A stretch of 64,000 nt of DNA, taken from assembly GCA_017303505.1 (NCBI GenBank), contig JAFLCP010000013.1, positions 2,446 to 66,445 of the forward strand, in the 5' to 3' direction. Of this stretch, positions 3,213 to 51,267 are shown piece after piece. Position 1 is the stretch's first letter; every line of letters begins with the position of its first letter. The translations under genes and the position numbers were made by a program. The notes beneath the pieces were generated by a model. That model saw nothing but the letters and a program-made list of their open reading frames with translations. It did not search any database and had not been told where the DNA came from. The stretch is from Planctomycetota bacterium (GTDB lineage Bacteria; Planctomycetota; Planctomycetia; Pirellulales; Pirellulaceae).

Positions 3213-5591
3213 TCAAGTTGCTGCCCCTTCAATTATGACTGTTACATTTCGCATACTTGACTCGATGGGGAATACCCATCCCTTCAATTCGCCAACGGTC
3301 ATCTTCTCAGGATCGAATCCACAGATGAGCATTATTGGGCAGTTCGTCGTGTAATTTGAAGATTGAGCGATGCCAGTGAGGGAAAGAACGTCCATTCCAC
3401 TCGGAACTGGGTTAGCAACTAAATGTGAATGCCACTCTCCGATGTAGACCATGGACGCGTCTTTCGACGACTCTGCATCAAGTTCCTGTTGGGCGAACTC
3501 GACGTCACGCTCGAATCGAGTTGCAGTTCGAACAGCTTTTGGACCAGGACCAGTTGCTCGAATAACAATCGCTGTGCCACCATCAATTTTTCCAATAAGA
3601 ATTCCTCCGGTTTCAGCAGTTGGAGATAATGCGACTTCGGTAAAGATGAAATCTCTTACGGTACTCGGTAGTGAAATACTACTTATTCTTGCGGGTCCGC
3701 ACGACGGGCATCCAGGCTGAGGTTCGAAGTTAGATTGAACGATGCTAAATGGAGAGTTGAGCTTTCCATCAAATTCTTCCATCGCCCGCAACGTCCACAC
3801 CAAGTGGTTCTTGAGCGCGGAGTTGGATTCCAAGAAGTCGATGGCAGTACGGGCGATATAGCCCGAGACAAAAACAAGATCTACAGCGCTACCTGCGATC
3901 ACTGGACGACCACACTCATGTAACAACGCGTCCTCAGTTCGCTCAGGCACCGATATCCAATCGGGCGTATCTTGGTATGCGATCATTCCCAAGCAAGTCT
4001 TGCACGCGTCAACGCCTGGACGCACAACGAATACTCGCCCCATTTGACCACGCCGCATTGATCTTCCGTATATGACAGGAATACCCATATCAACTGCGAG
4101 ATCGTTGAATCCTGACTCAGCTCCCTCATCGGCGATCGTGCATACAATTAGGTCAACGTCTGCAAACAGCTCACGAACTTCTTCCTGCGAAGGGCTGTTG
4201 ATGTACTTATCGAATACAGTTATCCGCGCATATGGATTTACGTCCCAAATTCTATTGGCAACCACTTCAGTCTTTGGAGAACCACTGTCTCGAAGTCCGC
4301 CGACGTGCCGTGCAACATTCCCTACGTGAAGAATGTCGCCGTCGCAAAGCTTAAATTGGGACACACCGGCTTGAGCAAGCATCTCACCCACCTTCGAACC
4401 AAGTGCTCCCAAACCGACGAGCGCAACTCTCTTTGAAGCAATCTGCGGTGCCACTACTGTCTCATTCCGCTTTCCGATTTCATTTGGAGTCATGCCGTGG
4501 ACCGGTACACATGCAACTCTGGCAGACTCAAAGCGAGCTCGTTTTTGATCGTCTGTTAAGACGGCGGGAAGTCCGTTGGATTTTTCAGCTCCAGCAAGAA
4601 CAACGACGAACAACCACTCTCGTTCTCCAAACCTTCCGGGATAGCAAAGGCCGATGTGGTGCATATTCTTCAATGTGAAATCAACTCCGATCGATTTGCT
4701 AACCATGGACCAAGCATCGCCATTAGGCGCTACTGAAGACAGTACTCCCAACAACCCTTTGCCATCACGAAAAACGCATGGCTCTTCGCCGAGTTCCCAC
4801 CAGTATCCGTTTACTCGCGCAATGTCACCAAAATCAATTGACTTGTGTTGTCGCTGTCTTTCTTGACATTCAACGAATTTTTTAGGTTCCCAGGCGTCGT
4901 TCGAAATCCAGGGGAAGATTGCTTGAAGATCTTCACGAGAATCGACGACCTGATAAACCGAAGTTAAAACTGTTGCAGATGTTGCGATCAAGGGTGGTTC
5001 TTCCTGACTTCGGCCGACGTAGAACCGATGAACATCTTTGACCGCGAAAAACTCACCATTCCCTTTTAGCAGTTCGGAGTAAAAGGTCTTACCCAAGAGT
5101 ATTCCAAAGCCGACCCGATAGAAATGTGCCTGAAGCTCAGTCTCTTTCGAATCTGGTGGCCAGCGGCCGGTAATATGTCCTAGGAACCACGCTTCAGCGC
5201 GGTTAAGAACGTCGATTACGCTGATCGCTTCTCCGCCTTCTGTTGTTCGAGTTTCGTATTGAAACAAACAAAGGGAGCCGGCAGGCATCTGGTGACGATG
5301 ATCGAACATTCTCGCTTTGGGGAAAGATATCGCGGCATTGTTACCATCGAAAGTTGGCATGCTTTCAAGGGGCGTGACGACTGGGAACGCATATGGCGAA
5401 TTACTGGGAAAATCCACCCGCACCGGAAATCTTTTGGCACCACCCTGTGGTCGAATAACAAGTTCCCCATATACGGAAACGTGTCCGTTCAAAAGGCTTC
5501 CTTCGTCGAGGACGAACTTTGGGTAGTTGCGTTTAAGTGCGGCAAGTTCTGCTGCGAACCACTGCGGGTGGCGAGTGTACCAAGCGTGCAT
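3213..5591 (-). CDS. E2(UBC-like)-E1(ThiF/MoeB-like)-JAB/MPN triple-fusion protein (Cap2+Cap3-like ubiquitin-type conjugation/deconjugation enzyme)
   Basis: aa 1-135: prokaryotic E2-like, YAFPVVTP ... HRHQMPAGSLCLF with candidate catalytic Cys108. aa ~386-635: E1 Rossmann fold, VALVGLGALGSKVGEMLAQAGV, plus paired CxxC motifs (DACKTC, GCPSCG). aa ~640-792: JAMM motif, AETGG ... EWHSHLVANPVPSGMD (HxHx7Sx2D). The ATG overlaps the upstream MBL stop (TAATG at 5589-5593). Confidence 0.85.
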   Translation of the reverse strand: MHAWYTRHPQWFAAELAALKRNYPKFVLDEGSLLNGHVSVYGELVIRPQGGAKRFPVRVDFPSNSPYAFPVVTPLESMPTFDGNNAAISFPKARMFDHRHQMPAGSLCLFQYETRTTEGGEAISVIDVLNRAEAWFLGHITGRWPPDSKETELQAHFYRVGFGILLGKTFYSELLKGNGEFFAVKDVHRFYVGRSQEEPPLIATSATVLTSVYQVVDSREDLQAIFPWISNDAWEPKKFVECQERQRQHKSIDFGDIARVNGYWWELGEEPCVFRDGKGLLGVLSSVAPNGDAWSMVSKSIGVDFTLKNMHHIGLCYPGRFGEREWLFVVVLAGAEKSNGLPAVLTDDQKRARFESARVACVPVHGMTPNEIGKRNETVVAPQIASKRVALVGLGALGSKVGEMLAQAGVSQFKLCDGDILHVGNVARHVGGLRDSGSPKTEVVANRIWDVNPYARITVFDKYINSPSQEEVRELFADVDLIVCTIADEGAESGFNDLAVDMGIPVIYGRSMRRGQMGRVFVVRPGVDACKTCLGMIAYQDTPDWISVPERTEDALLHECGRPVIAGSAVDLVFVSGYIARTAIDFLESNSALKNHLVWTLRAMEEFDGKLNSPFSIVQSNFEPQPGCPSCGPARISSISLPSTVRDFIFTEVALSPTAETGGILIGKIDGGTAIVIRATGPGPKAVRTATRFERDVEFAQQELDAESSKDASMVYIGEWHSHLVANPVPSGMDVLSLTGIAQSSNYTTNCPIMLICGFDPEKMTVGELKGWVFPIESSMRNVTVIIEGAAT

Positions 5592-6673
5592 TACTCTAGT
5601 CCCATAGGGCGTTGATCTATGCGTGTAGCGACAGTTGGTGCTGCACTTTGGATCACCCTCGCTGACGACGAGTTCTTCTTTTCTGATTTTTTGTCCTTCT
5701 TCTCGTTTTCGCGGCCGTACTCCTCAACAAGTTTGGTATCCAAGCGAACTTCATAGGTGCCATCGGTGAAAATGTCACAGATGACTGACTCACGATTAGC
5801 TCCGGTATGAATTACGTTATCGTCTCCAACATGATCTTCGTAGAGTTCCATTGCATCATCGTGTGGGTGGTCATGCCGACTTTCTGACTGTTTTGGAGCA
5901 GAAACAATAACGTACTCCGGATCAATTGTTTCAAGTGCTGTCATGTACGGGTCGTCGTCTTTGTCATGCTTGAAGAATGTTCGAGAACCATGGTGGGAAG
6001 CATTCAGAATCTTCGATGGCAATCGATCCTTGTGGTGATCGGTAATGTGATCTTCCCATGCAGTTCGATCAGCGTCACCTGTAAAGAGAATCCAGGTGTC
6101 GTCTTTTCCAATTCGCAAGACCGCGCAATGCTCGTGAATTCGCTTTCGACGTCCAGCAGCATCCTCGCCGGCAATATCCGTCTTCACATAGTCCGCAGGA
6201 GATAGGATGTAAATCTCCGCCTCGCCAAACGCTGTCGCACTGTCGCTTCCACGCATTTCGCTTGCTGCTTTGGAGCCGTGCTTTTTTTTGACTGCTTTTA
6301 TAACCTTCTGAAGCTCGTCGTAGGACGCTTTGTCGTCTTCGCCAGGTACGTGCCCGGATTCCCATACCTCATGGATATCTACTGATTCGTTCAGTTCTGT
6401 GATATCGTCAAGGTGGTCATTGTGCGGATGTGTATTGACGAACAGGTCCAGTCGCCCATCCTGGTCCGTGAGCAGATCTTTCATCAGCCTCGGGACGTTG
6501 ATTCCGTTGTGCCCTTCAGCATCCCGGTTTATGTCAATCAAAATTGTCTTGTAGGTCGTTCCGTCTTTTACCAAAACAACGGACGCATCACCTTGACCAA
6601 CGTAGAGCATACCTACACGAATCAACACGTCTGAATCAGTTGGCCAGAGAACATCTTGAGCAACGTTTGTCAT
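5591..6673 (-). CDS. metallo-beta-lactamase-fold hydrolase (ComEC/Rec2-type MBL), with a long charged C-terminal tail
   Basis: Motifs YVGQGDASVV, NTHPHNDHLDD (HxHxDH), FTGDAD and NASHHGS. GGAG RBS before the ATG at 6673. The last ~45 aa are K/E/S-rich and low-complexity, ending ...RIDQRPMGLE. Confidence 0.85.
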   Translation of the reverse strand: MTNVAQDVLWPTDSDVLIRVGMLYVGQGDASVVLVKDGTTYKTILIDINRDAEGHNGINVPRLMKDLLTDQDGRLDLFVNTHPHNDHLDDITELNESVDIHEVWESGHVPGEDDKASYDELQKVIKAVKKKHGSKAASEMRGSDSATAFGEAEIYILSPADYVKTDIAGEDAAGRRKRIHEHCAVLRIGKDDTWILFTGDADRTAWEDHITDHHKDRLPSKILNASHHGSRTFFKHDKDDDPYMTALETIDPEYVIVSAPKQSESRHDHPHDDAMELYEDHVGDDNVIHTGANRESVICDIFTDGTYEVRLDTKLVEEYGRENEKKDKKSEKKNSSSARVIQSAAPTVATRIDQRPMGLE

Positions 6674-6730
6674 ACTAAACTCCGTTAAATAACTTGAGGC
6701 TTGGAGACGTCAGTCAAACATCTGACATGC

Positions 6731-9700
6731 CTAGGTCAATTTCAATCCATCACGAATTTTCGCAAGTACCGAGTTCATCTCCGTTACAATCTCTGCCGAT
6801 GGCTTTTGTTGTGCATCGCCGAAATCGATTTGGATACTAAAGGTCAGCGGAGCATCACACTTGTTCTTGATATCCAGCAAAGCGGCCACATACTCGCCAA
6901 GTTCTTGCAGCTCAAATGCCTCAAGCTCCGACACAGCCCTGACACCATGCTTTTCGCTGACGCTTCCGAGCCCGAGGCCGGCAGGTCCTTGGTAAGCACC
7001 AGCTGATGTCCCGCCATTGCTACCACCAGAACTATTGACGACCGTGAACTTGGCTTTTGATGCCATCGCGAACTCACATGGCCAATCGTTCGAATCGTCT
7101 GTCAACGACAGAAAACGACCTGTGATTGCCGCGCTAATGGCAGATGCGACATTCTTCCATGGCAGAGTAACTCCGCTTTGATGTGACAATGCTGTGGCAA
7201 TTGCTGCGGCGTTTGTTGTTTCGTTCTTCCATGCAGTTGGCAACGTGGCTGGCAAAAGCGCCGCAGGAGCAATGCTCTCGGGGGGCACTCGAAGCTTCGC
7301 CGCTGGTGTCAGAATCCCTGGTGGTACATCCTCGGCCCAAAGACTTGATGGCCCAGAGAGCAACCAAATGTACCCCGCAGCAACCGCATTTCGGATTGCC
7401 AACTCAATCGCATCTTGGCTTGTCTTAGGAACGTGCACTGATTCTTTGTACCCACCACGGTCAACTTCAACCACGTGCCTTCCGCTGAAGTAGTCGATAA
7501 CGGTTTGCGCCGTGATTTCCTCGCCAGCCCAAAGGCCAGGAAGCACGCTTGGGGCGAGAAGTTTTGGTAGCACTTCTGCAAGTTCGGCATACTCCGGTAA
7601 AACAAGCTCAAGCGATGGGTCAGCCAAAGCTGCATCATCCGGGCGATCTCGCCACCAGGTTCGATATGAACGATCGGGTCGCGTAACCTTCAAAACGAAT
7701 GAACCCTGCAAACAACCCTCGACTAGTGTTTCAACAATCGCCGAAGACTTGAGCATCTTCGGAAGATGCGGGAGTTGAGCAAATGCACCAGCTAGATCTT
7801 TGACGCGTCGACTCTTATCCCCGTCTTGCCACAAATTGTATGGACCATCAGGCAGCAGTGCGTCGGCAGTGATTGCTGTGTCTCGCACTCGAGAGCGTGA
7901 ATCATTCTTGATCGTTTCAAAATGGTTCTGATCGCTAATCGACAACTTAAAGGCATGAGCCTCGTCCTTTTCGGAGACGGTAACGACAATGCAATACGCC
8001 TGACGGATCGCATCGGGAATTCTCTCTCGAGCCTTATCGATGTTGATCTTGAGTGTTTGCATCCGAGCAACGTCGATTGGCCCCTTCTGCTGCTTTTCCT
8101 CGTCTGTGCTTGGGGTCAATTCATCGCGAACTAATTCCCATGCCATGGAATCTTGAATTCGGGCTTCGGCAGCGCTCAGGCCGTCGCGAGATGGTGTGAG
8201 AAGAATGACTGCGTTGCGATGAACTCTCGGTTTATTTGATCCCGAAGTCTCATCCAGAAATCGTTTCGCTTCACTGCTAGGTTTACCGGATTCTGAAGCA
8301 GCACTTGGGGGCATCACAGCGTAATGAAATAGCCCGTCATCCTCAATGTCCTTTGGTTTCGATGGAAGTGTATGGACTTTAACGCCCGCAGCGCTCGCAC
8401 CGGCAGTTAGCGTCTTGAGTTTTCCAACATCCTCGAGCAATCGAGCGCGAACGAGTTCAGTGTCAATCGTCGCGAATGCGGCCGACTGCATTTGAGTGAG
8501 GTTAGGCCGGTTACCCAGTTTCCAATCAGACGGAAGCTCGCCATCTGTTGTCGGAAGATTTTGATCGTCGAGCCAATAACTTTTCCGAGCCCAACGCATT
8601 AGCCCTTTCTCGTATTCGATTCTGTCTGGGCGACATGGACCGACTAACAACATCAAATCGCGAGTCTTTGCGCTGCGGCCAGTTGGCTGTGAGTGCAGGA
8701 AGGTAGCCATTGCAGCTTGTTCGATCTCTCGCAACTTTAGTCCAACCGACTCTTGCTCGACTTGTCGCGCACACTCCAGTTCGGTTTCTAAAATACCGGT
8801 CCAGCGTGTGGCTGCTCCGTCAGACACGATTGTGTCTGCGATTGAAACGAGTTCGCGTGCCGCCTCGGATAAGCCATGTGTCTTGGGTGCGCTAAGAAAG
8901 ACGGCAGGGCCGACTAGGGGGCTTTCGTCCCACTTAACCGCTTCCCGAAGCGCTAGCGCGAACGTTCGCAAAACACCACGAGTCTTTTGAAATCGCTCGA
9001 TCCCCGATGACCATTTGGAGTAAAACACCTCGGTCAATTCAGGATGAAACGGGTAACTCTTCTGGTAACGCTCTTCAGCAAGGGAGCCTTTCTTGGCAGT
9101 CTGTTCGTCTAAAGCATTGATACCCTTGAGCGCTGCGATAATGTGCGTTGGCCAGGTTCCTTTATGCTGAATTGAATCAGGATCAAATAGGCGGCGTCTA
9201 AGCACCTCGGCCACATCGTCTTTTTCAACTGGTTGGACCGCCTCTTCACGCTGCCGCTGGAAGATATCGTTCAAAGCCGAAACGATGTTTTTGCCAAGGG
9301 TGTCGGCCTGATCTTTGGGCTCGCTCGACAACAGTGAAGCCACGATGCAACAACGCTCAACCTTGGCTGCCGCCTGAGTGAGATACTGGAAGAATGACGT
9401 CAGGACATCCAGCCATCCTGGTTCTGCATGCACGCGAACTTTGGCGTAGAGCAGAACTTCATCAAGTAAAATCAACGTTCCCATGCCATCTTTGAGCGGA
9501 ATCGATAGCAAGTCGGACAGGACATTCTCCGCCGGTGGTGTATTTCGTTCTTCCGCCTTTTTGTCAGCGTGAAGAAGCTTCAATCCCTCATCCCCCGCGA
9601 TCTGGTAAGCCAATAAGCTCCAAGGTTCGCGCAATCGCCTTACCGAACCATCCGGCGAACGAACATCGCAGCCGGTTTCTACGTCGACTTTGTCGAAGCA

Positions 9701-10102
9701 AAGTGCGGCCACTCGAGTCTTGGGCGGGTCTTGGCCAATGTGTCCCACAAATTCTGCAACTGCGGGCACTTCGGGCAATTTTGCGGGATCATGAACCAAG
9801 TGCCGCATCGTGATCAACGTATGCGTCTTGCCTCCGCCATAGTTCAATTCAAGCTGCCGAACAGCTTTGTCGTTCTTGCCCGCTAGTCGTAGCACGACGT
9901 CGCGCACGAGCCCACGCAGATTATGCGTAGGGTAGGTAAGCGCAAAAAAATCGTCGGCGTTCTCGTAAATGGGACGTTTCCCATTCTGCATCATCACTTC
10001 GTACAGGTCCGCTGCAAATAAGTGCAGTGGTAAGTCACCCGTCTCTAAATCTTTTCGGATCTTGACTACTTCGTGCCAGGCTTTCCAAGGTTGCTTTGCC
10101 AT
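6731..10102 (-). CDS. DUF499-family P-loop ATPase
   Basis: The N-terminus (PWKAWHEVVKIRKDLETGDLPLHLFAADLYEV) is typical of DUF499. Walker A-like NYGGGKTHTL and Walker B LILLDEVLLY. 1123 aa. Confidence 0.8.
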   Translation of the reverse strand: MAKQPWKAWHEVVKIRKDLETGDLPLHLFAADLYEVMMQNGKRPIYENADDFFALTYPTHNLRGLVRDVVLRLAGKNDKAVRQLELNYGGGKTHTLITMRHLVHDPAKLPEVPAVAEFVGHIGQDPPKTRVAALCFDKVDVETGCDVRSPDGSVRRLREPWSLLAYQIAGDEGLKLLHADKKAEERNTPPAENVLSDLLSIPLKDGMGTLILLDEVLLYAKVRVHAEPGWLDVLTSFFQYLTQAAAKVERCCIVASLLSSEPKDQADTLGKNIVSALNDIFQRQREEAVQPVEKDDVAEVLRRRLFDPDSIQHKGTWPTHIIAALKGINALDEQTAKKGSLAEERYQKSYPFHPELTEVFYSKWSSGIERFQKTRGVLRTFALALREAVKWDESPLVGPAVFLSAPKTHGLSEAARELVSIADTIVSDGAATRWTGILETELECARQVEQESVGLKLREIEQAAMATFLHSQPTGRSAKTRDLMLLVGPCRPDRIEYEKGLMRWARKSYWLDDQNLPTTDGELPSDWKLGNRPNLTQMQSAAFATIDTELVRARLLEDVGKLKTLTAGASAAGVKVHTLPSKPKDIEDDGLFHYAVMPPSAASESGKPSSEAKRFLDETSGSNKPRVHRNAVILLTPSRDGLSAAEARIQDSMAWELVRDELTPSTDEEKQQKGPIDVARMQTLKINIDKARERIPDAIRQAYCIVVTVSEKDEAHAFKLSISDQNHFETIKNDSRSRVRDTAITADALLPDGPYNLWQDGDKSRRVKDLAGAFAQLPHLPKMLKSSAIVETLVEGCLQGSFVLKVTRPDRSYRTWWRDRPDDAALADPSLELVLPEYAELAEVLPKLLAPSVLPGLWAGEEITAQTVIDYFSGRHVVEVDRGGYKESVHVPKTSQDAIELAIRNAVAAGYIWLLSGPSSLWAEDVPPGILTPAAKLRVPPESIAPAALLPATLPTAWKNETTNAAAIATALSHQSGVTLPWKNVASAISAAITGRFLSLTDDSNDWPCEFAMASKAKFTVVNSSGGSNGGTSAGAYQGPAGLGLGSVSEKHGVRAVSELEAFELQELGEYVAALLDIKNKCDAPLTFSIQIDFGDAQQKPSAEIVTEMNSVLAKIRDGLKLT

Positions 10103-10191
10103 TGTTTTTTATCTCTTTCTCTTCGCTCATTTCGTTTGATTTGTATTATTCAGTGTTTGTCAGTTAATAGGAGCAGGATCGATTATCCAAC

Positions 10192-13100
10192 TCACTCATC
10201 CTCTTCGAACTCAAAAGCGAGGAGGGGGCCGCGATCGGCGATTGCCCCCTTAGCTCCGATGTGGTTACTAATGCTCTCCAGCAGCGAACGCTCACCATTC
10301 GTGGATAGCTCAATCAACGATTGCACTACACGTTTGAATAATTCATTTCGACGCAAGCCATGTTCATCGAGAAACTCATCAACCTTTTGAACGTCGCCAC
10401 TCTTCCATAGATGCATAACCCGATGGATGCGATCGATTAGTGGTACCGGGCGACCCTCGGGCGCCTCGATCCCCATACTGCGATGTGTCCGGCGATCCCA
10501 CGCTTTCAACTTCACCTTGTTTCCGCTTCCCGACGGTTCGGAATCGGGATCGTCATCGTCAGGATTGCTTTCGACGTCGTCATCGCCGCCGGAGGTAACA
10601 CCACCTCGAACTAGAATATCCCAGGTTCGTTCCAATTCAGTATCTGTCAGTCCGCAAGCAGTCGCGTAGAGGATGCAGGCGCCTATAGGAGCTTCGTCCA
10701 TACGGAAATCGTAGCGGTGGAGAAGGTAGTAGGCTGTTACTTCATCAAGTCGATCCGCGGCAACCGTTTCCTTTTCCTTTGCTCCAGTTAGCACTTGGCC
10801 GACTACGTAATCGACAACCATCCGGCGGACATGAGTTAGAAACTCGCCTACCGTCATGATTTCGCCATCGACTAAAGCTTTACGAACAACAGGGTGCTTG
10901 CTATACGCTTCCATCGCTGGCCCAGTTGCAGCCCACACAAAGTCGGGCCCGCGAATTCCTGCATCCCAAAATTCACGAAGCTGAGTCGCAATTTTGGTAC
11001 GCATCTCTTCGAGTACTTTGTTGTCCCAACCAGGCTTAGCTGATGTAGGACGTTTCTTGCACACGAGCCAGACTGATGAAGACAATGCAGCTGCTGATTG
11101 TGACCGAGTACGAGCAACTCGTTCAGTTTGTATGGGCCAACTGCCATCAACAACGAAACCGGCACGAATCACAGCCGAAACGAGTGTTTCCCATGCATCA
11201 GGATGCTTATGCGCAAATACCAACACTAAGCGTCCATTGCTATTTAACGCTTGCCCGCATGCAACAAAAGCTTTTGCCATGCCGTTTTCATAAGCGTCTT
11301 TTGAGTCCTTCTTATTTCCGCCGAATCGACTCGCATCATCAACCAATTCACCATCGTTCGTTTCACTGTTCCATTTTGGAGCTAAAGGCTGATCTGAATC
11401 GTAGCTGCCGTCCTGGATAATTCCATGCAGCGCTCTTCGGTGCCAAGTATAGAAGAAATCCATAAGCACCGAATATCCAATCGCATCGTAGTATGGTGGA
11501 TCAGTTATGATTACGTCATACAGCCCTGTCCCAGGTGGGTTTATGGCGGAACCACGCAAAACAGAAGGTGGTTCTGCTTGAAGCGTGGCATTGCATGTAT
11601 GCTCGGTCGCACGACAGATCCATTCCACGGCGCCCCGATAGTTGCCGCTAGTTTCACCCAGCGGATTGCCTTCACAGTAGTCCCATATAAATGGTAACGC
11701 CCAACGGACAAACGTATGCCCTAAGAACTCTCCGCCGGAAGTCCACGTAACACATCGGCTGGAGAAATCTGCGAGGCGACCGACTGCCAGCGTGAGTAAT
11801 CCAACTAGCCCCTCGGTCCATTCAGCGTCGTAACTATACTTTCTGCCTTCAATGGAAATCTCACGGGTGGACAGCACTAATCTTCCAAGTGCAGCCATCT
11901 GCCTCGAGTTATAAAGTTTGTGAAACTCATTGATCCCATAAAGAGAGCACCAGGTATTTCCCTTGGCATCCAGGATCATTGGCTCATGGAGCATGCCAAA
12001 TGGAATTTTTGCAAAAATATTGTCTACCTCGCATTCAATTGATGATGAGGCAGCTAGGTCAATATCTGTCGGCTTTCTGTACTCTTTCCCATTTCCACCA
12101 TCGACTACTACAGCGGTTAGAGTTTGGCCAATACGATCATTCATTCCCTCAATTTGTATGTCGGCCTTGGTCATGAAAACGCCACATGCTGGACATTTAC
12201 CGCCGGACTTTGTTACAGTTCCCTCACCAACACGTTTGTCATGTTCTCTCTTTTGTGCTGCGTTGCCTCCCTTTGCCGGTTCATTTTGATTAATGTTGAA
12301 GCCAACAACTCTTGTTGCTTTGTCAATCGTTAGTTCGAGCTTGATGCGTTTAGTCTCGGATTTAGCCAGCCAAAGTGTTTTGATCAAGGGAAATACGACG
12401 CGGCAATTCTTGCAAGCAACAGTTCTGGCCCAAAGAAAAGCGACAGTTGGCTTAACAACCCATCGAGGGTTACCTTTAATTGCAAGATAATCATCAGAAA
12501 ACTCATCATTTAGAACTTCTATATCTGGCGTGCCGTCTTCCTTTAACTTGAGCAATTTTGTTGGTTGATACTCGTAAGCGACGCTATTCTTCTTCAACGG
12601 CTCAAAATCTGCGTATGTCGGGTAGTATTTTGCTAGGTCGCGACGCGTTTGTTGAAGCACCCACTGCCCCCAAGCGCGAACATGCCAAGCAAGATCTGCC
12701 TGCAATTCGCCTTCATCCTCAGCACCGTCGTTTACGAATCCAAAGGTCTGTTGCGGTTGGCTGCTATCATTCCACTTTTTTCGCTTCTTCAATCGCGCGT
12801 GCAACTTCGCCAGTGCCGCCCGAACCTCCGTCTTGGAATATCCCTTGGCCTTTTTGAAAAAGTCCGTCATGAACTCATCATTGCGCAAGATAAATTCCGG
12901 TAGCGGCCGTGTTTGCCCTGCTAGCTTTTGTGGATACTCAAGAGTGCATTTCAGGATAAACCAAGCCACTGGGTTGATATCCACGGCAGTTGTTTCGCAG
13001 CCCAATCGCATCGCTTCCAGTGGGATTGCTCCACCACCAGCGAATGGATCGAGTACCTTGGGAGCTCGCCCTCCATAAGCCTTACGAATTTCGTCACGAA

Positions 13101-13452
13101 ACCACTGCAGCGTCTCCTCGTTTTCTGTTTCACGGCCCCAGTGCAAAATGCCGCCTTCGGTCTCCTTCTTCACGCGTTCGACGATTTGACCATTGGGCAT
13201 TTTCTTGCGTTCAATCTTCTTGACGACCTTGCCTGCGATCTTCTCGCACAGCTCACGTCGCCCTTCCGCCGTTCCAGGATCAGGCAGCAGCGTCGCAATC
13301 AGCGCCGCGCGACAAGCGGCCAATGGCCGACGTGCGGGCCAGATGTGAAGTGTCGAGATATGACCATGCCGCACGTTCTTCTCATGCACTGAGTCAAGGG
13401 ACGTTGCTTCCAATGGGAAAGCGTGTTCGATCAATCGCGGGAAATCACTCAT
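10192..13452 (-). CDS. DUF1156-family N6-adenine DNA methyltransferase with internal Zn-ribbon
   Basis: DUF1156 signature IEHAFPLEATSLDSVHEKNVRHGHISTLHIWPARRPLAACRA. SAM motif I VLDPFAGGGAIPLEA, motif IV IITDPPYYD, and Zn-ribbon GGKCPACG. Confidence 0.9.
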   Translation of the reverse strand: MSDFPRLIEHAFPLEATSLDSVHEKNVRHGHISTLHIWPARRPLAACRAALIATLLPDPGTAEGRRELCEKIAGKVVKKIERKKMPNGQIVERVKKETEGGILHWGRETENEETLQWFRDEIRKAYGGRAPKVLDPFAGGGAIPLEAMRLGCETTAVDINPVAWFILKCTLEYPQKLAGQTRPLPEFILRNDEFMTDFFKKAKGYSKTEVRAALAKLHARLKKRKKWNDSSQPQQTFGFVNDGAEDEGELQADLAWHVRAWGQWVLQQTRRDLAKYYPTYADFEPLKKNSVAYEYQPTKLLKLKEDGTPDIEVLNDEFSDDYLAIKGNPRWVVKPTVAFLWARTVACKNCRVVFPLIKTLWLAKSETKRIKLELTIDKATRVVGFNINQNEPAKGGNAAQKREHDKRVGEGTVTKSGGKCPACGVFMTKADIQIEGMNDRIGQTLTAVVVDGGNGKEYRKPTDIDLAASSSIECEVDNIFAKIPFGMLHEPMILDAKGNTWCSLYGINEFHKLYNSRQMAALGRLVLSTREISIEGRKYSYDAEWTEGLVGLLTLAVGRLADFSSRCVTWTSGGEFLGHTFVRWALPFIWDYCEGNPLGETSGNYRGAVEWICRATEHTCNATLQAEPPSVLRGSAINPPGTGLYDVIITDPPYYDAIGYSVLMDFFYTWHRRALHGIIQDGSYDSDQPLAPKWNSETNDGELVDDASRFGGNKKDSKDAYENGMAKAFVACGQALNSNGRLVLVFAHKHPDAWETLVSAVIRAGFVVDGSWPIQTERVARTRSQSAAALSSSVWLVCKKRPTSAKPGWDNKVLEEMRTKIATQLREFWDAGIRGPDFVWAATGPAMEAYSKHPVVRKALVDGEIMTVGEFLTHVRRMVVDYVVGQVLTGAKEKETVAADRLDEVTAYYLLHRYDFRMDEAPIGACILYATACGLTDTELERTWDILVRGGVTSGGDDDVESNPDDDDPDSEPSGSGNKVKLKAWDRRTHRSMGIEAPEGRPVPLIDRIHRVMHLWKSGDVQKVDEFLDEHGLRRNELFKRVVQSLIELSTNGERSLLESISNHIGAKGAIADRGPLLAFEFEEDE

Positions 13453-14167
13453 TATCTTTTTCTTCCTTGGAAGGTGCTTCTTCGTTGGCGTTGGGCTTAG
13501 TGGCAGTTACTGCAGGTGCATTCTGCGTTGGCATTGGAAGCTGAAGAAATTGCACCAGTAGTTCACGGGCATAGTGCTTTCCAAACCGATGCATTCGCAG
13601 AGCCGCGAGCACTGCTCCGAAGCCAAGTAGCCCAATCGCACTCCAGTTCGTAGGCACCTTGAAGATCGCGACAATCGCGACGAACACTAGCGAAACGCAC
13701 AGGCCGCGGTTTAGACCATAGTTGCCATTGAAGATGTCGACCCTGGACGCACGGCTCTGGGCAGCAACGGCGGCGTAGATTTGACGCGTAATTCCATACC
13801 ACTCTTTTCTGCCAATTGCAGAAAGATCTGCGGGTACGCTCAAACCTAATTTTGTTTGTAATTGGCTGATAATCGCTGTGCGCTGCGAGTCATGGATCAG
13901 CTTCAATTTGTTCGAGCGAATCCAGTCGCTCGGCATTCCGTACCAATACCACCAAGCCGTTTCCAGGAAACCTCCGAGGGTTTGCACTAAATGTCCCGCA
14001 GCATATGACAAGATCAAGAACACACCCAAGCTGCCGAGTGACATGTCCTTCAACGGCACCGTCTGCGCTATCAGAGTCTCTGCTTGAGCTAATCCGAAAA
14101 TCAGAATCGCACCGGGCATCACGATTCCAGCAAACTCATAAAAGTCGAAATTTTTGTCTGCCTTCAT
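13445..14167 (-). CDS. four-TM membrane protein of unknown function
   Basis: Two N-terminal and two C-terminal hydrophobic helices flank a ~85-aa soluble segment. ATGA overlap with the upstream MBL gene and an 8-nt overlap with the downstream methyltransferase. Confidence 0.6.
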   Translation of the reverse strand: MKADKNFDFYEFAGIVMPGAILIFGLAQAETLIAQTVPLKDMSLGSLGVFLILSYAAGHLVQTLGGFLETAWWYWYGMPSDWIRSNKLKLIHDSQRTAIISQLQTKLGLSVPADLSAIGRKEWYGITRQIYAAVAAQSRASRVDIFNGNYGLNRGLCVSLVFVAIVAIFKVPTNWSAIGLLGFGAVLAALRMHRFGKHYARELLVQFLQLPMPTQNAPAVTATKPNANEEAPSKEEKDNE

Positions 14168-15150
14168 CGATCGTACTCCGAGTCAATGGTTGGTTGGCTG
14201 TATGCAGGGATGTTTACTACGATGTCCCCTTTCCATCGAGTGGACCAAACGTTGTTGCTATACGCTCGGTACTTGTTAGATGCGTCAGTAGATGGTTTCT
14301 TGCCCACAGAGACGATCGTGTATTCCGGCTTCATCGCGGCGACCGCAGGTTGATAGTAACCTGAGTCACGACCATGGTGACTGGCTTTCAAAATGTCACA
14401 TTTCAAATTGCTGCCATAGTAGTCATGAATGGACTCCCAGACTTCAGCCTCGGCATCGCCGCCAAGTATGATCCGCGTGCCATTTGCCACCAGATAGAGA
14501 ACATAGCTGAGGTTATTGTGATTTTTCGATGTGTTAGCCGCTGTATTGGTCTCTATTGTCGGCGCGAGGATATGAATGCCGTCTCCTCCATCAGTCAAAT
14601 CGGCGTTTTGGTTGAAATATGGTCTATGCATGCCCCGATAGTATCGCAACACCGTCACGTCGCCTGGACTGCGCCATTCGCCGTTGCGCAACCGTTGGTA
14701 GCGTCCCCAGTCGATTCGATCGTTGTCTGTTTTGAAGTCTGGGACTTTGGAGTGCCAAGTATCCCAGACGTTGCGGATCGCGATGCCCTCGCGCCACAAT
14801 GCGTTGAGCCCACGCATGTGGTCAAGGTCCGGATGAGATTGGATGTACCGAAAAATCTCTCGACCAGGAAAGTGCTGCTTAAAGTACTCCACCGGATTGG
14901 TCAGTTGAACGTTGTAACCGGCAGTTTTGAGAACACCTTCAATCAACCGACCTGACAGTTTTATACCGAGGGCCTTTGCGAGCGCGAGCTGTGCGTTATC
15001 GTACGACGACGGGGTCTCATCCGCTATTTCTTGTGCGGATGTGTCGTCGAGGCTGTCTCCGTTGTTGATGTCGATCATCGTAATGCGACCACTATCATGC
15101 TCGATGATGGTGCAGTCACCGTGGCCAACATTTAAGAAGTGAATCTTCAT
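14164..15150 (-). CDS. metallo-beta-lactamase-fold hydrolase (second, divergent ComEC-type MBL paralog)
   Basis: Motifs FLNVGHGDCTIIEH, QSHPDLDHMRG (variant HxDxDH), LGGDAE and KASHHGRDSGY. Alignable by eye with the 5591-6673 product. ATGA overlaps on both sides. Confidence 0.85.
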   Translation of the reverse strand: MKIHFLNVGHGDCTIIEHDSGRITMIDINNGDSLDDTSAQEIADETPSSYDNAQLALAKALGIKLSGRLIEGVLKTAGYNVQLTNPVEYFKQHFPGREIFRYIQSHPDLDHMRGLNALWREGIAIRNVWDTWHSKVPDFKTDNDRIDWGRYQRLRNGEWRSPGDVTVLRYYRGMHRPYFNQNADLTDGGDGIHILAPTIETNTAANTSKNHNNLSYVLYLVANGTRIILGGDAEAEVWESIHDYYGSNLKCDILKASHHGRDSGYYQPAVAAMKPEYTIVSVGKKPSTDASNKYRAYSNNVWSTRWKGDIVVNIPAYSQPTIDSEYDR

Positions 15151-18100
15151 TCCTTCCCTCCTAACCGTTCTGCCCGGAGGACTTCTGCTCTCTTGATCAA
15201 CACACTTCCCTTTGCACTCGCTAGTAGGTTCCCGAATGGATCTTGAACTCGGGCAAGTTTTGGCGAGGGCGTTGCGCAGTCGTACACTACGTAGAGCCAG
15301 TACTGATCACGAAGGTTGGCTGCCCGAGCCCATTCGTTTGACGAGACTTCAACGTCGCCCGTACTTGCGCGACCTTTCACTTCAATGGCTCGTCGACCTC
15401 GTGGATCGGTAGATGGGTAGATCGCTAACAGGTCGAAGCCAGGATTGTCAGTTAAGCCTGCCGCTCGGGCGAGTTCGGGTGTAGACACATCCTTAACCTC
15501 CGCGCCTTGAGCTTCTTCGAAAGCTCTGGCGACATCCATGGCCACGCGTTCGACGTCGGCGTCGTGTCTGGCTAAGTCATCTGGATCGGACGAGGGGACA
15601 ATCAGGGCATGAGCGACGAAGACCACCTTGCCTGGTCTGATCAACTCGGGTTCTCGATGGATTGTATCGATCGCTAATTGTCGTCGTCCGGACAGGGATT
15701 TTTGTTGATTTCGTATATCAGTGAGAGCCTTGAGTGCACCAGGATTTCCAGCTCGCGCTTTCTCGGACAGCCTGTTTCGAGCTGCTGCCAACTCACTCTC
15801 TTGAAAGCTGAATCCACGCCGAATGAATTGCTCGCGCTCTGCTAAAGTAGCAAGCATCTGATTGCGACGCCCCATAGCAATGTCGCGGGAAACGCGTTCT
15901 GTTAGATAGGCCTCAGCCAGCTCACACATCTTGCTCGCTTCTGCGGCCAAACGCTGGGCGGTAGCTGGCAGTCCTTTACTTGGACCAAGAAGCATTAAGT
16001 GCTCAACTGGACATAGTTCAGTGTCAGCGCCTTCGTACTGGCGAATGCCAATCAATCGACACTCCAATCGTTCCGGCGTGGCCAAATCGGGAAAGTCTTT
16101 GTCGGCAGCGCGATCAACGGTCGCCAACGCCACATGGAACAGATAGGGTTTGCTGGCTGTAGGATCGACAAACACAGCGCCGTTTAGCGCATCTTGGCCA
16201 ATCCGCTCGGATACTAAATCGCGAAAAGCCTCAAAGACAGGTTCGCCTGGATGCACCCACACCGCAGCTCCGCGTTCTTGTGGGCGAACGACAGAGAGGC
16301 ATTGTCTTTGTCGAGCGTTATAAAGCTCCAGTGTTGGCAGGATCGGATCAATCGAGCCGGGGTGGAGGGGAATGAAGGAAAAGCACTTCTGCATGTCGCC
16401 TTCCATCCCAATTCCCGCGGGGGGGCCAGCGTTCTCTAGATACTGGCGAACGTATCCTGGCAATAGTCGACGATATGCTTCTTGCATCAAGTCGGCACGC
16501 AGTCTCGGCAGTTGCTTCTTGACGTCTCCGCCATCGCCGTAAAGCATTCGTTCTTGAGCTGCGAGTGCTTGAACCTGTTCAGCGGTTAGCTTGCCAGACA
16601 ACTCACTGATCGCTTGGTCCGCACCATCGACTACCGCTTGCTCCATGTAAGTGCTCAACGATACGCCTTCGAACAATCGCCCGATCGAATCAAAGACTTT
16701 CTCGCTGCCAAGCGAATCGCGAATGATCTCAAGTTTCGCAAGCAATGTTTCGATCACCTTGCCTTCGCGAGTGTCGGGCGAAACCAAGTTAATTATGTGA
16801 ACTGGGTCGTGCTTCTGTCCGTAGCGATGAATTCGGCCCATGCGCTGTTCGAGACGAGCCGGGTTCCAAGGGACATCAAAGTTAATCATGATCCAGCAAA
16901 ACTGGAGGTTGATGCCTTCGGCCGCCGCATCCGTGCAAATCATGAATCGCGCTCCGTCCGCTTGGGTATGATCGCGTCGAAAGCGCTCAACTGCTTCTTG
17001 CCTGGCCTTGTAGTCCATTCCGCCATGGATTTGCGCAATACGACCTGTATGGCCCAATCCGCCTAAGCGGCCAACTAGATAGTCGAGCGTATCTCGATGC
17101 TCGGTGAAGACGATTAGCTTTTCGCCAGCGAACCTAGGGCTATTCAGGATCTCTTGGAGTTTTTCGAACTTCGATTCGCTACCATCCGCTTGAACGCGGC
17201 GGGCTAGTTGGAGCAGCACCGCAACCTGTTCTCGTTCAACGTATAGATCCGTCAGCGATGTCGCGATCACGCCTGAAAGGAGCTTTCCTTCGGCCACTTC
17301 GCTTTCTTCACGGTCACCAATCGCCCGTTCTTCATCAGCGGTTTTGGTGTCAAAGACGTCTTCTTGATCCGAAGCCAGGCGACGCTGCAAAAGATTGATC
17401 TCTTCGCCAGTCAAATTATTGTCCTGGACTCGCTGGATCAACTCGTCTAGCTTTTCAATGCGTCGCTCGAATGATCGGGTTAGTGCGTATGTCGAGCTTG
17501 CAAGGCGACGCTGCATAACGCTCATTGCCAATCGAGCCGCCGATCGATTGAGCAACTTGGCACGATTGTAAACGTGCCTCATGTAATCGGTCGTTTCGTT
17601 GTACAGGACCTGTTCACTGAAAGGTCCTTGGCTGAGGCGGAATCCAAGCGTGTCGGAAATGCGCTTGGGATAGAGCGGCTCTCCCGACAATAGCACCATC
17701 TCCTCCTTGGTGCGTCGGATGAAGTGGGACTGGCGACGCTCGACAGGATAGTTTTCGAACGCCTCGGGCGTTGAGAGCACATCCGGCTCGAGTAACCGCC
17801 AAAGACCGTAGTAAGGATAAGGCTTGCCTTGGTGCGGCGTCGCGGTTAGCAACAGCAAGTGGTGCGGAGACCAATTCAGCTGCCAAGCTGGATCAAGTCC
17901 TCGGACGCCAGCGAGTGATTCAGCTAACTCATATCGGCCCGTCTTTCGGACGCGTAGGTCGCTACTCCGATTAACGGAGAGCTTGTGTGCTTCATCGAAG
18001 ACAACCAGGTCGTATGGTTCTACATCAGGTTCCTGCAATCGAGCGAACATTTTAGGGCCAGCAAGCGTGTCTACGCTTACGACGATTCGATCACTGCCTG

Positions 18101-18719
18101 GGCCAATGAAGGGATTCCCGGCCCGCGTGTCCGATCCTGTGACGACGTTGAAAGGCAGATTGAACAAAGACTGCATTTCGCTTTGCCAGTTACCAATCAG
18201 TCCGGCGGGTGGCACGATCAGCACGCGACGAATCAAGCGTCGGGACAACATCTCGCGAATATACAAGCCCGTCATGATGGTCTTGCCAGCACCGGCGTCG
18301 TCAGCAAGCAGGAACCGCAACCTAGGGTGCTTTAAGAGGTAGTCATAGACAGCAATTCGTTGGTGTGGCAACGGGTCAATACTGGACGTTTCCGTCGCAA
18401 AAGCGGGGTTCGACAGGTGGCCAAAAGACAACCGTTCCCCCTCAACCACGGCGCGGACAATTTCAGGATTCGCCGTGAATTCGACTTTGCCAGCATTGGA
18501 AACCAGGTGTCCACCAAACGTTGTTTCGTGGTCCTCTCCCACAAGCTTCTGAAGTTGTTCCCAGGCAAGCTGCGAAGGCTTAGCATGCCCATTCTCCCAC
18601 CGGCTTACGGTTGGGAAAGACACGTTAAGTCGTTTGGCAAACTCGGTTTGCGTCAATCCTATTCGCGCACGAATCCGCCGAATTTCAGCTGGCAAGTCTT
18701 CAATTTCTGCTAGATCCAC
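15147..18719 (-). CDS. HTH(XRE)-SNF2 helicase-DUF3883 fusion protein
   Basis: GTG start with GGAG 9 nt upstream. N-terminal HTH IGLTQTEFAKRLNVSFPTVSRWENGHAKPS. Helicase motifs LLADDAGAGKT, VVFDEAHKL and QRMGRIHRYGQK. C-terminal DUF3883-like GFDLLAIYP...RRAIEVKGRASTGDVEVSSNEWARAANLRDQYWLYVVY. Confidence 0.9.
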   Translation of the reverse strand: MDLAEIEDLPAEIRRIRARIGLTQTEFAKRLNVSFPTVSRWENGHAKPSQLAWEQLQKLVGEDHETTFGGHLVSNAGKVEFTANPEIVRAVVEGERLSFGHLSNPAFATETSSIDPLPHQRIAVYDYLLKHPRLRFLLADDAGAGKTIMTGLYIREMLSRRLIRRVLIVPPAGLIGNWQSEMQSLFNLPFNVVTGSDTRAGNPFIGPGSDRIVVSVDTLAGPKMFARLQEPDVEPYDLVVFDEAHKLSVNRSSDLRVRKTGRYELAESLAGVRGLDPAWQLNWSPHHLLLLTATPHQGKPYPYYGLWRLLEPDVLSTPEAFENYPVERRQSHFIRRTKEEMVLLSGEPLYPKRISDTLGFRLSQGPFSEQVLYNETTDYMRHVYNRAKLLNRSAARLAMSVMQRRLASSTYALTRSFERRIEKLDELIQRVQDNNLTGEEINLLQRRLASDQEDVFDTKTADEERAIGDREESEVAEGKLLSGVIATSLTDLYVEREQVAVLLQLARRVQADGSESKFEKLQEILNSPRFAGEKLIVFTEHRDTLDYLVGRLGGLGHTGRIAQIHGGMDYKARQEAVERFRRDHTQADGARFMICTDAAAEGINLQFCWIMINFDVPWNPARLEQRMGRIHRYGQKHDPVHIINLVSPDTREGKVIETLLAKLEIIRDSLGSEKVFDSIGRLFEGVSLSTYMEQAVVDGADQAISELSGKLTAEQVQALAAQERMLYGDGGDVKKQLPRLRADLMQEAYRRLLPGYVRQYLENAGPPAGIGMEGDMQKCFSFIPLHPGSIDPILPTLELYNARQRQCLSVVRPQERGAAVWVHPGEPVFEAFRDLVSERIGQDALNGAVFVDPTASKPYLFHVALATVDRAADKDFPDLATPERLECRLIGIRQYEGADTELCPVEHLMLLGPSKGLPATAQRLAAEASKMCELAEAYLTERVSRDIAMGRRNQMLATLAEREQFIRRGFSFQESELAAARNRLSEKARAGNPGALKALTDIRNQQKSLSGRRQLAIDTIHREPELIRPGKVVFVAHALIVPSSDPDDLARHDADVERVAMDVARAFEEAQGAEVKDVSTPELARAAGLTDNPGFDLLAIYPSTDPRGRRAIEVKGRASTGDVEVSSNEWARAANLRDQYWLYVVYDCATPSPKLARVQDPFGNLLASAKGSVLIKRAEVLRAERLGGKE

Positions 18720-21979: not shown

Positions 21980-23053
21980 TTATGAAGCCACAATGATATC
22001 TAAACTTCGAAGCAATCGCACTAGTCCTTCAATAGTGATATACGGAGCACATGTGCCTTCATACGATGCAGCTACAGTTTCCCAGTTATCGCACAGTCGA
22101 CGCCGTACCTTATCAGCTACTTCTATGGAGTCACACTCCAGTGCGATTACACAATCAGATAGAGCCAACTTCCTTCGACCCAGATAAATTGCACACTTTG
22201 CTGTTTTCTGGGACCCCACTCGCGTAATCAAAACCGACGGTGAGGAGACCAAACGACTTCCCAAATCAACGTAACGATCGCAACAAGTAATCTTTTGCCC
22301 TACTATCTCAGTACTATGCACGAAAGGGAATTTCGTTCCAGCTAAGCCATTTAACGCCCGGTGCACTGGAATACAACCGCGAATCAAACGAACCGTGAGC
22401 GTTCTGCTTCCAATTTTTGGGGAAATCGTCATATTAGGAGGGGTGATGGCGGTGCTATTGTCACTCTTTTTGAAGCGAACAACGACAGTCGAGGCAGAGC
22501 ATCCCATGAATGTCGACTTAGAGAATCGCTTGATTACAGTCATGCTAGCCATGCTCATAATGAGGTCTCTGCATCTAGCGTCTTTACTACTAGAAAGACA
22601 GGACGGCGGAAGAATTGCAATGAGCTCACCACCCATCTTTAGATAGTCGAATGCAGTAAGCACAAACGCAAACGCCCGACTGCATCTTATCCTTCCCGCA
22701 CGCGACTCTGCAATACACGCAGCACTTCCTCTTCCGCTAAATGGAGGATTCAATAAGACAATATCACATGCGTTGAGCAGCGATTTAAGTATTTTTGATG
22801 CCTTGCGCGAGCGTTCGTCAAGGAAGTCGCAGCAAGAGACCGAGTGGATAGATTTCAGCTTGCGAAGAGTACGCGCGCACAAAGGATCGATGTCGTTCGC
22901 GAAGATCTGGCAAGAGGGCCAACGGTCGATAGCAGCCGCGAGCAAATCGCCATGGCCTGCCGCAAAATCTGCGACAATTTGAACCTTTCTGATCTTTGCC
23001 GCCCGCACAGCGGCGAATGCGAGGTTCTTTGGCGTGAAGAACTGATCTTTCAT
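21980..23053 (-). CDS. N6-adenine DNA methyltransferase (gamma-class, Eco57I/N6_Mtase-like)
   Basis: Motif I VADFAAGHGDLL and motif IV VLLNPPFSG. ATGA overlap with the upstream gene. Last gene of the six-gene operon. Confidence 0.8.
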   Translation of the reverse strand: MKDQFFTPKNLAFAAVRAAKIRKVQIVADFAAGHGDLLAAAIDRWPSCQIFANDIDPLCARTLRKLKSIHSVSCCDFLDERSRKASKILKSLLNACDIVLLNPPFSGRGSAACIAESRAGRIRCSRAFAFVLTAFDYLKMGGELIAILPPSCLSSSKDARCRDLIMSMASMTVIKRFSKSTFMGCSASTVVVRFKKSDNSTAITPPNMTISPKIGSRTLTVRLIRGCIPVHRALNGLAGTKFPFVHSTEIVGQKITCCDRYVDLGSRLVSSPSVLITRVGSQKTAKCAIYLGRRKLALSDCVIALECDSIEVADKVRRRLCDNWETVAASYEGTCAPYITIEGLVRLLRSLDIIVAS

Positions 23054-50656: not shown

Positions 50657-51267
50657 GAACGCTCCTCCTGAAGGTCCCAATGCTGTGACACTTCTTGAAT
50701 TTTCTCTTTAAGTCTGGTGACGACTCGAAAACGAGCGACGTAGATGGAACCGACGGATCGACCGCTGGACTCGGCGACCTGGGCGATGGAGACACCTTCG
50801 ATTGCCGTCCATTGAAAGAGCTTCCAAATCTCGTCACTGAATTCGGCTCGGATTTGTTCGGTGGCCCAGCGGATGATTTCTCTGCGAGCTTCAGCCAGAA
50901 ATTCGCTAGCGGTGGCTTCGGGTTCGGGCTGAGCGGCGAGCAGTTCGGCCACCGAAGTCGTACCGGTCGCTTGGTCGTGTGGTCTGCGGATGAGGGCTTT
51001 GGTGATTGCGTTACGAGCGATTGTCGTCAACCAGGCGCGAAACGGCGGTTGCCCGACGCCGGGCTCCCAGCGTTCGATGGATTTGGCGATCGACAGAAAC
51101 ACTTGTTGTGCCACGTCGTGTGCATCCGCCTCCTGGAGATGCCGCCGCCGAGCCATTCGGTAAACAACCGGCTGATAAATCCCCAGAAACTCCGCCCACG
51201 AAGCTCCATCCCCCAGGTCTTGGACCCGGGCAATGAGGCTGTGGTTGGTTTCTGGAAAATCTGACAT
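50653..51267 (-). CDS. ECF sigma factor (kinase-associated type)
   Basis: Region 2 DAHDVAQQVFLSIAKSIERWEPGVGQPPFRAWLTTIARNAITK and region 4 IEGVSIAQVAESSGRSVGSIYVARFRVVTRLKEKI. Confidence 0.9.
   Translation of the reverse strand: MSDFPETNHSLIARVQDLGDGASWAEFLGIYQPVVYRMARRRHLQEADAHDVAQQVFLSIAKSIERWEPGVGQPPFRAWLTTIARNAITKALIRRPHDQATGTTSVAELLAAQPEPEATASEFLAEARREIIRWATEQIRAEFSDEIWKLFQWTAIEGVSIAQVAESSGRSVGSIYVARFRVVTRLKEKIQEVSQHWDLQEERS

Follow-up and report, generated by a model that had tools for sequence, protein, structure and literature searches.

The two genes analysed here encode a protein of the metallo-beta-lactamase (MBL) fold, MBL2, and a small membrane protein with four transmembrane (TM) helices, 4TM, and lie inside an Hma operon on a 64-kb stretch of Pirellulaceae DNA (the window, meaning the whole stretch searched). 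Hma is a validated anti-phage system in which the embedding of further genes is the rule. Published surveys find inserted genes in 62.7% and 66.5% of Hma systems, describe an insertion hotspot, and recognise many of the inserts as independent defence systems. When Hma-embedded cassettes were tested (HEC-01 to HEC-09), seven of the nine were active alone; these cassettes (ATPase/TOPRIM, GmrSD-like, RNases) include no pairing of an MBL with a membrane protein. Csx27 is an accessory of type VI-B1 CRISPR-Cas (Smargon et al. 2017), and Makarova, Gao, Zhang and Koonin (2019, FEMS Microbiol Lett 366:fnz088) link the Csx27 family to competence-type proteins, ubiquitin-like enzymes and DNA modification. 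PDC-M48 is a PADLOC candidate system drawn from cassettes embedded in BREX, DISARM and type I restriction-modification (R-M) loci (Payne et al. 2024, bioRxiv 10.1101/2024.01.29.577857), and the 6A-MBL anti-phage system combines an E2/E1/JAB protein, 'cap2_3', with an MBL enzyme (van den Berg et al. 2024).

Like Csx27, 4TM has a 2+2 layout of four predicted TM helices and goes with a ComEC-like MBL, with E1/JAB enzymes and with a DNA-modification system, and its match to the Csx27 hidden Markov model (HMM) spans the profile almost from end to end and is seen again in its own family; it differs from Csx27 proper in that no cas13b or CRISPR array stands beside it, the neighbours being MBL2, HmaA and HmaB. 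These associations are named in the title of the 2019 article and reportedly in its text as well. MBL2 shares with the ComEC domain the MBL fold and the motifs GHGD (GQGD in ComEC), HxDxDH, D and HHG, but is a stand-alone protein of 328 aa, free of the OB-fold and competence channel domains and provided with a separate 4TM partner. In many Hma and type I R-M loci the 4TM family comes with a 272-aa MBL that matches PDC-M48B over its full length (248 bits in locus L109), whereas MBL2 represents a subtype apart from core PDC-M48B, and 4TM falls outside the PADLOC definition as far as HMM matches show. PDC-M48A gave no match for the window 4TM (even at E ≤ 10), for its neighbours or for any 4TM relative tested, and on the last of these grounds we rejected the pair as PDC-M48 in full. 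The likeness to 6A-MBL lies in the shared MBL clade, in an operon that ends with a second MBL (MBL1) and an E2/E1/JAB gene, and in one related locus (L038) where 6A-MBL genes adjoin a 4TM plus MBL2-type pair; the differences are that MBL2 has no C-terminal Gly, scores 49.1 bits against 6A-MBL_enzyme (cut-off 220), and has HmaB and HmaC lying between it and the E2/E1/JAB gene. The module had already been predicted in the literature and does not amount to a system of a new kind; its MBL is covered by PADLOC candidate models and Hma embedding is well described. What we add is a quantified pairing, an invariant position between hmaA and hmaB, a dichotomy of MBL types by C-terminal Gly, a natural deletion of 4TM and a natural fusion of E2/E1/JAB to a 4TM domain.

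Conserved pairing of MBL and 4TM within and outside Hma

An earlier note on this DNA had placed the pair between the helicase and methylase genes with overlaps of 4-8 nt, and both coordinates and junctions bear this out. Read from the sequence, the helicase and MBL2 genes overlap by 4 nt (ATGA), MBL2 and 4TM by another 4 nt (ATGA), and 4TM and the methylase by 8 nt (ATGAGTGA). Shine-Dalgarno-like sequences stand upstream of the MBL2 start (AGGAGG) and of the 4TM start (GGAG), the latter within the last MBL2 codons, and the module is translationally coupled to the Hma genes. At 14164-14185, TCGGAGTACGATCGATGA encodes the conserved C-terminal peptide of MBL2, SEYDR, and also holds the GGAG and ATG of the 4TM gene; since ribosome-binding site and start codon share this sequence, part of the conservation of SEYDR may reflect dual coding for translational coupling.

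We gathered 106 loci with a 4TM homolog, 26 from species-representative genomes and 80 from metagenomes. Among the 54 with at least 1 kb on each side of the 4TM homolog, 50 carry a same-strand MBL gene directly beside it: 26 have it upstream, 20 downstream and 3 on both sides, and 1 has it downstream with a second, divergent MBL upstream. The remaining four have no adjacent MBL (L026, where the gene is partial, L079, L080 and L097). This pairing is far beyond chance. It also holds in the reverse direction, as a look-up starting from MBL homologs found a Csx27-like 2+2 TM neighbour in three of four cases. The partner MBLs are of several subtypes, told apart by length and C-terminus, and two different ones may stand in tandem upstream of 4TM, a 272-aa PDC-M48B-type and an MBL2-type of about 320 aa (L109-L111, L069/L070/L073). 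Distances of 4TM and MBL correlate at a Mantel r of 0.44 (n 59).

Where at least 4.5 kb was available on each side (n=34), the 4TM gene lies within Hma in 18 loci (2 of them also with E1-JAB nearby), in a 4TM-MBL-E2/E1/JAB arrangement outside Hma in 5, and in neither in 11. The co-occurrence outside Hma-type loci, which the earlier note had proposed as a check, is therefore real: the pair stands with E2/E1/JAB, with type I or III R-M, or alone (Table 1). On a Polymorphobacter megaplasmid it lies in an island that also holds integrases and the toxin-antitoxin genes HipA and VapBC, and the two genes of the pair are annotated 'hypothetical protein'. The plasmid collection searched contains one 4TM homolog only. 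Pelotomaculum thermopropionicum SI has the pair (PTH_2400) beside a DUF499 gene and many insertion sequence elements. MBL and 4TM thus make an obligate-looking pair, found in and out of Hma. In the Pirellulaceae metagenome-assembled genome (MAG) that is the nearest relative (L001, 4TM 96% identical), the MBL2 frame is split at 8850-10004 into open reading frames (ORFs) of 271 and 108 aa, the split being either a frameshift or pseudogene or a fault of the assembly.

Inside Hma, the pair regularly occupies the slot between hmaA and hmaB, a known insertion hotspot; the 4TM gene is found there in 25 of the 25 loci that show both genes. A neighbour-joining tree of 4TM contains one large clade that is wholly Hma-embedded; elsewhere Hma, E1-JAB and stand-alone members are interleaved. 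Mantel correlations are 0.70 for 4TM with HmaA and 0.68 for 4TM with HmaB, against 0.93 for HmaA with HmaB and 0.32 for MBL with HmaB. The 4TM gene is accordingly a long-term resident of Hma, bound less tightly to the core genes than these are to one another, and its MBL partner is exchanged. From about 100 related loci, the usual partner of the Csx27 family is a ComEC-type MBL, and the pair is a portable cassette of at least three kinds of host system: Hma, the E2/E1/JAB '6A-MBL' and classical R-M.

We found 1,309 homologs of MBL2, many automatically named 'competence protein ComEC' or 'beta-lactamase superfamily II hydrolase'. Pfam gave no match for MBL2 or 4TM even at E ≤ 10 and has no family for either, and RefSeq names both proteins 'hypothetical'. 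A phmmer search of the PDB with MBL2 returned the beta-lactamase-like domains of ComEC, 9ic4 (1.7e-7) and 9vc6 (9.2e-7). Among NCBIfam models, 6A-MBL_enzyme, ComEC_Rec2 and Avs1a all matched under their cut-offs, ComEC_Rec2 (TIGR00361) in the C-terminal part only (34.5 bits vs a cut-off of 190). PADLOC matched PDC-M48B at E 1.2e-25, a partial match of 88.5 bits over profile positions 41-242 of 296, and also LmuA and RTasMBL. The AlphaFold2 (AF2) model of MBL2 has a pLDDT of 88.6 and a pTM of 0.88, and its top Foldseek match is again the ComEC domain 9ic4 (E 7.9e-17, TMt 0.74), followed by the phosphorylcholine esterase Pce (E 1e-11).

The earlier note had taken SHPDLDH, residues 105-111 of MBL2, for a variant metal motif, a claim that the metal-site alignment overturns. 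Aligned to 9ic4, MBL2 sets VGHGD over VGQGD and SHPDLDH over THPDADH, and on this alignment the motif reads as the ordinary HxDxDH of the ComEC-type MBL clade, with no mark of an unusual or dead enzyme. The ligands H10/D12, H106, D108, D110, H111, D232, H258 and H259 are kept across 30 MBL2 homologs, residue 108 toggling within the family between D (26/30) and H (4/30), and the metal site is intact. Motif I already begins at residue 9, too early for a signal peptide to precede it, and MBL2 is predicted to lie in the cytoplasm. A helical insert of about 55 aa (residues ~30-85) is modelled with lower pLDDT. By sequence, fold and motifs MBL2 is a ComEC-type MBL, a predicted phosphodiesterase and, by analogy, most likely a DNase.

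For 4TM we found 710 homologs at E ≤ 1e-3 in a 90%-clustered collection, and 1,429 representatives at 50% clustering. Hydropathy places the helices at residues ~13-33, ~45-66, ~153-172 and ~177-193, with a net-positive loop of 86 aa (67-152) between the two pairs and a basic stretch, the C-terminal juxtamembrane helix, past TM4. The 2+2 protein with a cytosolic loop of about 85 aa that the earlier note described is thereby upheld, and the AF2 model is confident (pLDDT 86.3, pTM 0.75); of the acidic tail noted alongside, the presence in the window 4TM stands, but it is a lineage-specific trait not conserved across the family. Hydropathy and charge fit an N-in/C-in topology with a cytoplasmic loop, and by the positive-inside rule both large soluble parts of 4TM would lie on the cytoplasmic side, the same as the signal-less MBL2. 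A fold search of the PDB with the 4TM model gave no meaningful match (best E 0.78).

Aligning 25 homologs (43-89% identity) shows 31 invariant columns in 4TM, mostly polar or aromatic, with the motifs YEF near the N-terminus, GH, WW, GMPxDW, TRQ, RxDxFNxNYGLxRG and RMHRF...ARELxVQFL. Both genes keep 70-84% amino-acid identity to relatives while synonymous sites are saturated, a saturation that leaves dN/dS unquantifiable except against the nearest relative, where the changes are too few. MBL2 and 4TM are real genes conserved at the protein level, and the doubt about the 4TM ORF is settled in its favour. The PADLOC Csx27 profile matches the window 4TM at E 2.3e-5 (residues 7-180 on profile positions 4-169 of 206) and 10 of 13 other family members scanned at 3.5e-8 to 3.3e-3, two of which also match the type VI-B 'tm_4' profile. 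NCBIfam CAS_Csx27 gave no match to the window 4TM at E ≤ 1; the best relative tested, from L006, reached E 3.6e-4 (20.6 bits, cut-off 65). By profile similarity, 4TM is a member of the Csx27 superfamily. Csx27 proper was rejected as its identity, with scores far under the cut-off and no cas13b nearby.

Candidate functions of the pair

The explanation that we hold with rather more belief than doubt is that the pair is a conserved module in which a Csx27-superfamily 4TM protein accompanies a membrane-docked, catalytically intact ComEC-type MBL phosphodiesterase, most likely a DNase, the two serving as an accessory or embedded defence arm. The conserved cytoplasmic helical domain of 4TM and its basic C-terminal helix would probably dock MBL2 at the membrane; 4TM would hold MBL2 in place at the inner membrane or gate it there, at the site of entry or replication of foreign DNA, and MBL2 would then degrade nucleic acid, as a nuclease arm added to the Hma operon or as an independent layer inside it. 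The module could act alone or under the control of its host system, Hma here and E2/E1/JAB or R-M elsewhere. Whereas protein identities, pairing, contexts and metal site are observed, the physical docking, the DNA substrate, the defence role and its trigger are what we infer. The MBL domain of ComEC is a nuclease. Hachiman trypsin-MBL, a relative among the defence MBLs, is reported to be an autoinhibited DNase.

Several considerations weigh against this explanation. The literature searched holds no experiment on the MBL2 and 4TM pair. Pce as the second-best fold match makes a non-DNA phosphodiester substrate possible, and the analogy with ComEC is only partial, as the MBL domain of ComEC is extracytoplasmic and MBL2 is predicted to be cytoplasmic. 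HmaA already has a nuclease domain of its own, so Hma has no obvious need for another. Finally, two related loci from independent samples, L114 and L115, keep an intact MBL2 without any 4TM. Here the 4TM gene has been deleted (L114 8972-9226, L115 1311-1565), leaving a 254-nt non-coding gap and, as its only remnant, the last ~30 nt that overlap the hmaB start. The MBL2 of these loci (P0127) belongs to the set of 30 that shows no variation at any catalytic residue, which suggests that MBL2 has no strict need for the membrane partner. 4TM as the obligatory antitoxin of a toxic MBL is likewise unlikely, because an intact MBL persists there in its absence. Compared with the window, L114/L115 are 94% identical in HmaA, 94% in HmaC and 98% in MBL1, vs 64% in MBL2 and 71% in HmaB; from these mosaic identities together with the deletion, the middle of the operon would appear to be a hot zone of recombination or diversification.

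A possible but doubtful alternative is that the pair is an integral effector arm of an Hma subtype, acting only with HmaA, HmaB and HmaC, where Hma would sense unmethylated DNA and the membrane MBL would degrade it. The invariant placement at the hmaA|hmaB junction (25/25), the 4-8-nt overlaps with both neighbours, the large all-Hma clade in the 4TM tree and the way in which 4TM distances track HmaA and HmaB would all be expected of such an arm. However, Hma is missing from 16 of the 34 large contexts, and the tree mixes Hma with non-Hma members; Hma loci exchange one MBL subtype for another, as the low MBL-HmaB correlation reflects; the correlation of 4TM with Hma is weaker than that between HmaA and HmaB and may stem from shared host ancestry; and unrelated embedded cassettes occupy the same spot in most published Hma systems. 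We consider it unlikely that 4TM is instead a toxic abortive-infection (Abi) effector that permeabilises or depolarises the membrane, with the MBL as sensor, activator or antidote. A small multi-TM protein inside a defence operon, with its 2+2 layout now confirmed, does invite the idea, and Csx28 of type VI-B2 is reported to form membrane pores. The relatives that we detect are nevertheless Csx27 and not Csx28, the sole experimental finding for Csx27 is that it represses Cas13b interference, not that it kills, the most conserved residues are polar and lie in the cytoplasmic domain rather than on an amphipathic pore-lining face, and the family is nearly always paired with an enzyme of intact active site. 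The similarity to membrane-disrupting Abi effectors that the earlier note had pointed to is thus one of resemblance only, given Csx27-family relatives, an acidic tail that is lineage-specific and the loss of 4TM in a close relative.

The remaining alternatives concern what the enzyme might cut and where. That 4TM is a single-stranded DNA (ssDNA) channel, with the ComEC-like MBL degrading one strand or incoming DNA as in natural transformation, would suit the closeness of MBL2 to the ComEC nuclease-type domain, and an ssDNA channel or degradation system is a published hypothesis for the 4TM family. It is nonetheless quite improbable: 4TM has four TM helices only and no ComEC competence channel domain, MBL2 carries no signal peptide and is predicted on the cytoplasmic side, and the neighbours are defence genes, not a competence pilus or ComEA/ComF. 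Nor do we give much credence to a phosphodiesterase directed at something other than nucleic acid, such as a phospholipid head group, a teichoic-acid-like phosphodiester or a nucleotide signal, to which 4TM would present the substrate. The structural match to Pce and a membrane protein as partner speak for it; yet the ComEC matches are stronger in both sequence and fold, those related defence MBLs for which assays are reported proved to be DNases, and the contexts are DNA-centred, with methylases, helicases and R-M systems.

MBL1 and the E2/E1/JAB protein at the 3' end of the operon

Directly downstream of hmaC, the same operon carries MBL1 and the E2/E1/JAB gene, a distant 6A-MBL-type pair. 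MBL1 matches NCBIfam 6A-MBL_enzyme at E 3.8e-16 (59.1 bits, cut-off 220) and the 792-aa protein matches 6A-MBL_cap2_3 at E 4.3e-39 (135 bits, under the cut-off). In related loci the MBLs linked to E1-JAB end in Gly (...KKPMG, ...PKKFG, ...PKKYG, ...PRAG), which suggests ubiquitin-like C-terminal conjugation. The 6A-MBL features of a ...PMG-LE end and an abutting E1-JAB gene belong to MBL1; MBL2 shows neither. On these sequence features the E2/E1/JAB enzyme encoded next to MBL1 likely takes MBL1 as its substrate, and MBL1 may also be a second client of 4TM.

Several arrangements bring these genes together with 4TM. Triads of 4TM, MBL1 and E1JAB occur in L006, L045, L104, L032 and L047. In L038 a bona fide 6A-MBL enzyme (393 bits), cap2_3, 4TM and an MBL2-type gene are contiguous, in the order MBL1-E1JAB-4TM-MBL2. 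L002 keeps the seven-gene order of the window, and L001 and L013 have all of its genes in different orders. In the 985-aa protein P0350, E2-like/E1/JAB is naturally fused to a Csx27-like 4TM domain at the C-terminus: residues 783-983 match the 4TM profile at E 5.9e-55, and BLASTP aligns the protein to the window E1-JAB at 2e-17. The window operon has a single 4TM gene for two MBLs, which suggests that the pair may be less self-contained than it looks, and the one 4TM may serve both MBL1 and MBL2. The earlier note had offered an embedded system or an effector arm; a self-contained module remains a fair reading, since the pair occurs outside Hma, but the link to MBL1 and E2/E1/JAB had been overlooked.

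A further, somewhat unlikely idea takes the genes at 3213-18719 as one unit, based on the contiguity in L038, the order in L002, the recurrence in L001 and L013, the P0350 fusion and the single 4TM gene. 4TM would be a shared membrane hub for two ComEC-type MBL nucleases, binding MBL2 directly, while MBL1 would be recruited or activated through ubiquitin-like conjugation of its C-terminus by E2/E1/JAB, to the hub or at the membrane, and the Hma helicase, methylase and ATPase would give self/non-self discrimination. If true, an R-M/BREX-related system would here be wired to a nuclease arm that is anchored at the membrane and under ubiquitin-like regulation. The pair also offers a two-gene handle on Csx27-like function and on the membrane action of bacterial ubiquitin-like conjugation, with the 4TM deletion and the fusion as guides.

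Operon layout and other genes of the window

The host operon is a complete HmaA-HmaB-HmaC system (Table 1), with PADLOC E-values of 2.5e-150 for HmaA, 2.1e-109 for HmaB and 1.8e-69 for HmaC. Pfam matches are SNF2, Helicase_C and NOV_C in HmaA, DUF1156 in HmaB, DUF499 in HmaC, and ThiF and Prok-JAB in the 792-aa protein. All operon genes are on the minus strand and tightly packed.

Table 1. Genes of the window operon, followed by gene arrangements at related loci (coordinates are those of the window or of the locus named)
Feature	Position	Strand	Description
HmaA	15147..18719	-	1190 aa; helix-turn-helix, SNF2 helicase and NOV_C (PD-(D/E)xK) nuclease domain; first gene of the operon
MBL2	14164..15150	-	328 aa; predicted cytoplasmic ComEC-type metallo-beta-lactamase-fold phosphodiesterase, probable nuclease
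4TM	13445..14167	-	240 aa; Csx27-superfamily membrane protein, 2+2 TM helices
HmaB	10192..13452	-	1086 aa; DUF1156 N6-adenine DNA methyltransferase
HmaC	6731..10102	-	1123 aa; DUF499 ATPase
MBL1	5591..6673	-	360 aa; second ComEC-type MBL, C-terminus ...RPMG-LE
E2-like/E1 (ThiF)/JAB fusion protein	3213..5591	-	792 aa; Cap2+Cap3-like; last gene of the operon
L039			non-Hma; order HsdS-4TM-MBL-HsdM
L070			non-Hma; pair adjoins HsdR
L004			non-Hma; pair between glnA (glutamine synthetase) and a hydrolase
L095			non-Hma; pair beside an integrase
L006			non-Hma; pair after type III R-M
L032			non-Hma; pair after SNF2 helicase and Eco57I/MmeI-like methylase
L109-L111	7170-9636		type I R-M, then 272-aa MBL, MBL2-type and 4TM, appended after a YgjP-like fragment
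L112/L113			HmaA-MBL-4TM-HmaB
L116			MBL, then a more divergent 2+2 TM protein keeping the WGGxPT and NxNYGxxR motifs

Some 3 kb from the Hma operon, four genes at 21980-26739 (minus strand) encode an N6_Mtase-like protein (357 aa), a 310-aa protein, an ORC-CDC6-like ATPase (625 aa, E 3.5e-136) and a PRTase-CE protein (297 aa), a cluster that looks to be a conflict or defence system in its own right. The Hma locus has its best relatives among Pirellulaceae MAGs. Very large Ser/Thr protein kinase genes at 45032-50680 (1882 aa) and 59403-62522 (1039 aa) are consistent with a planctomycete origin of the window.

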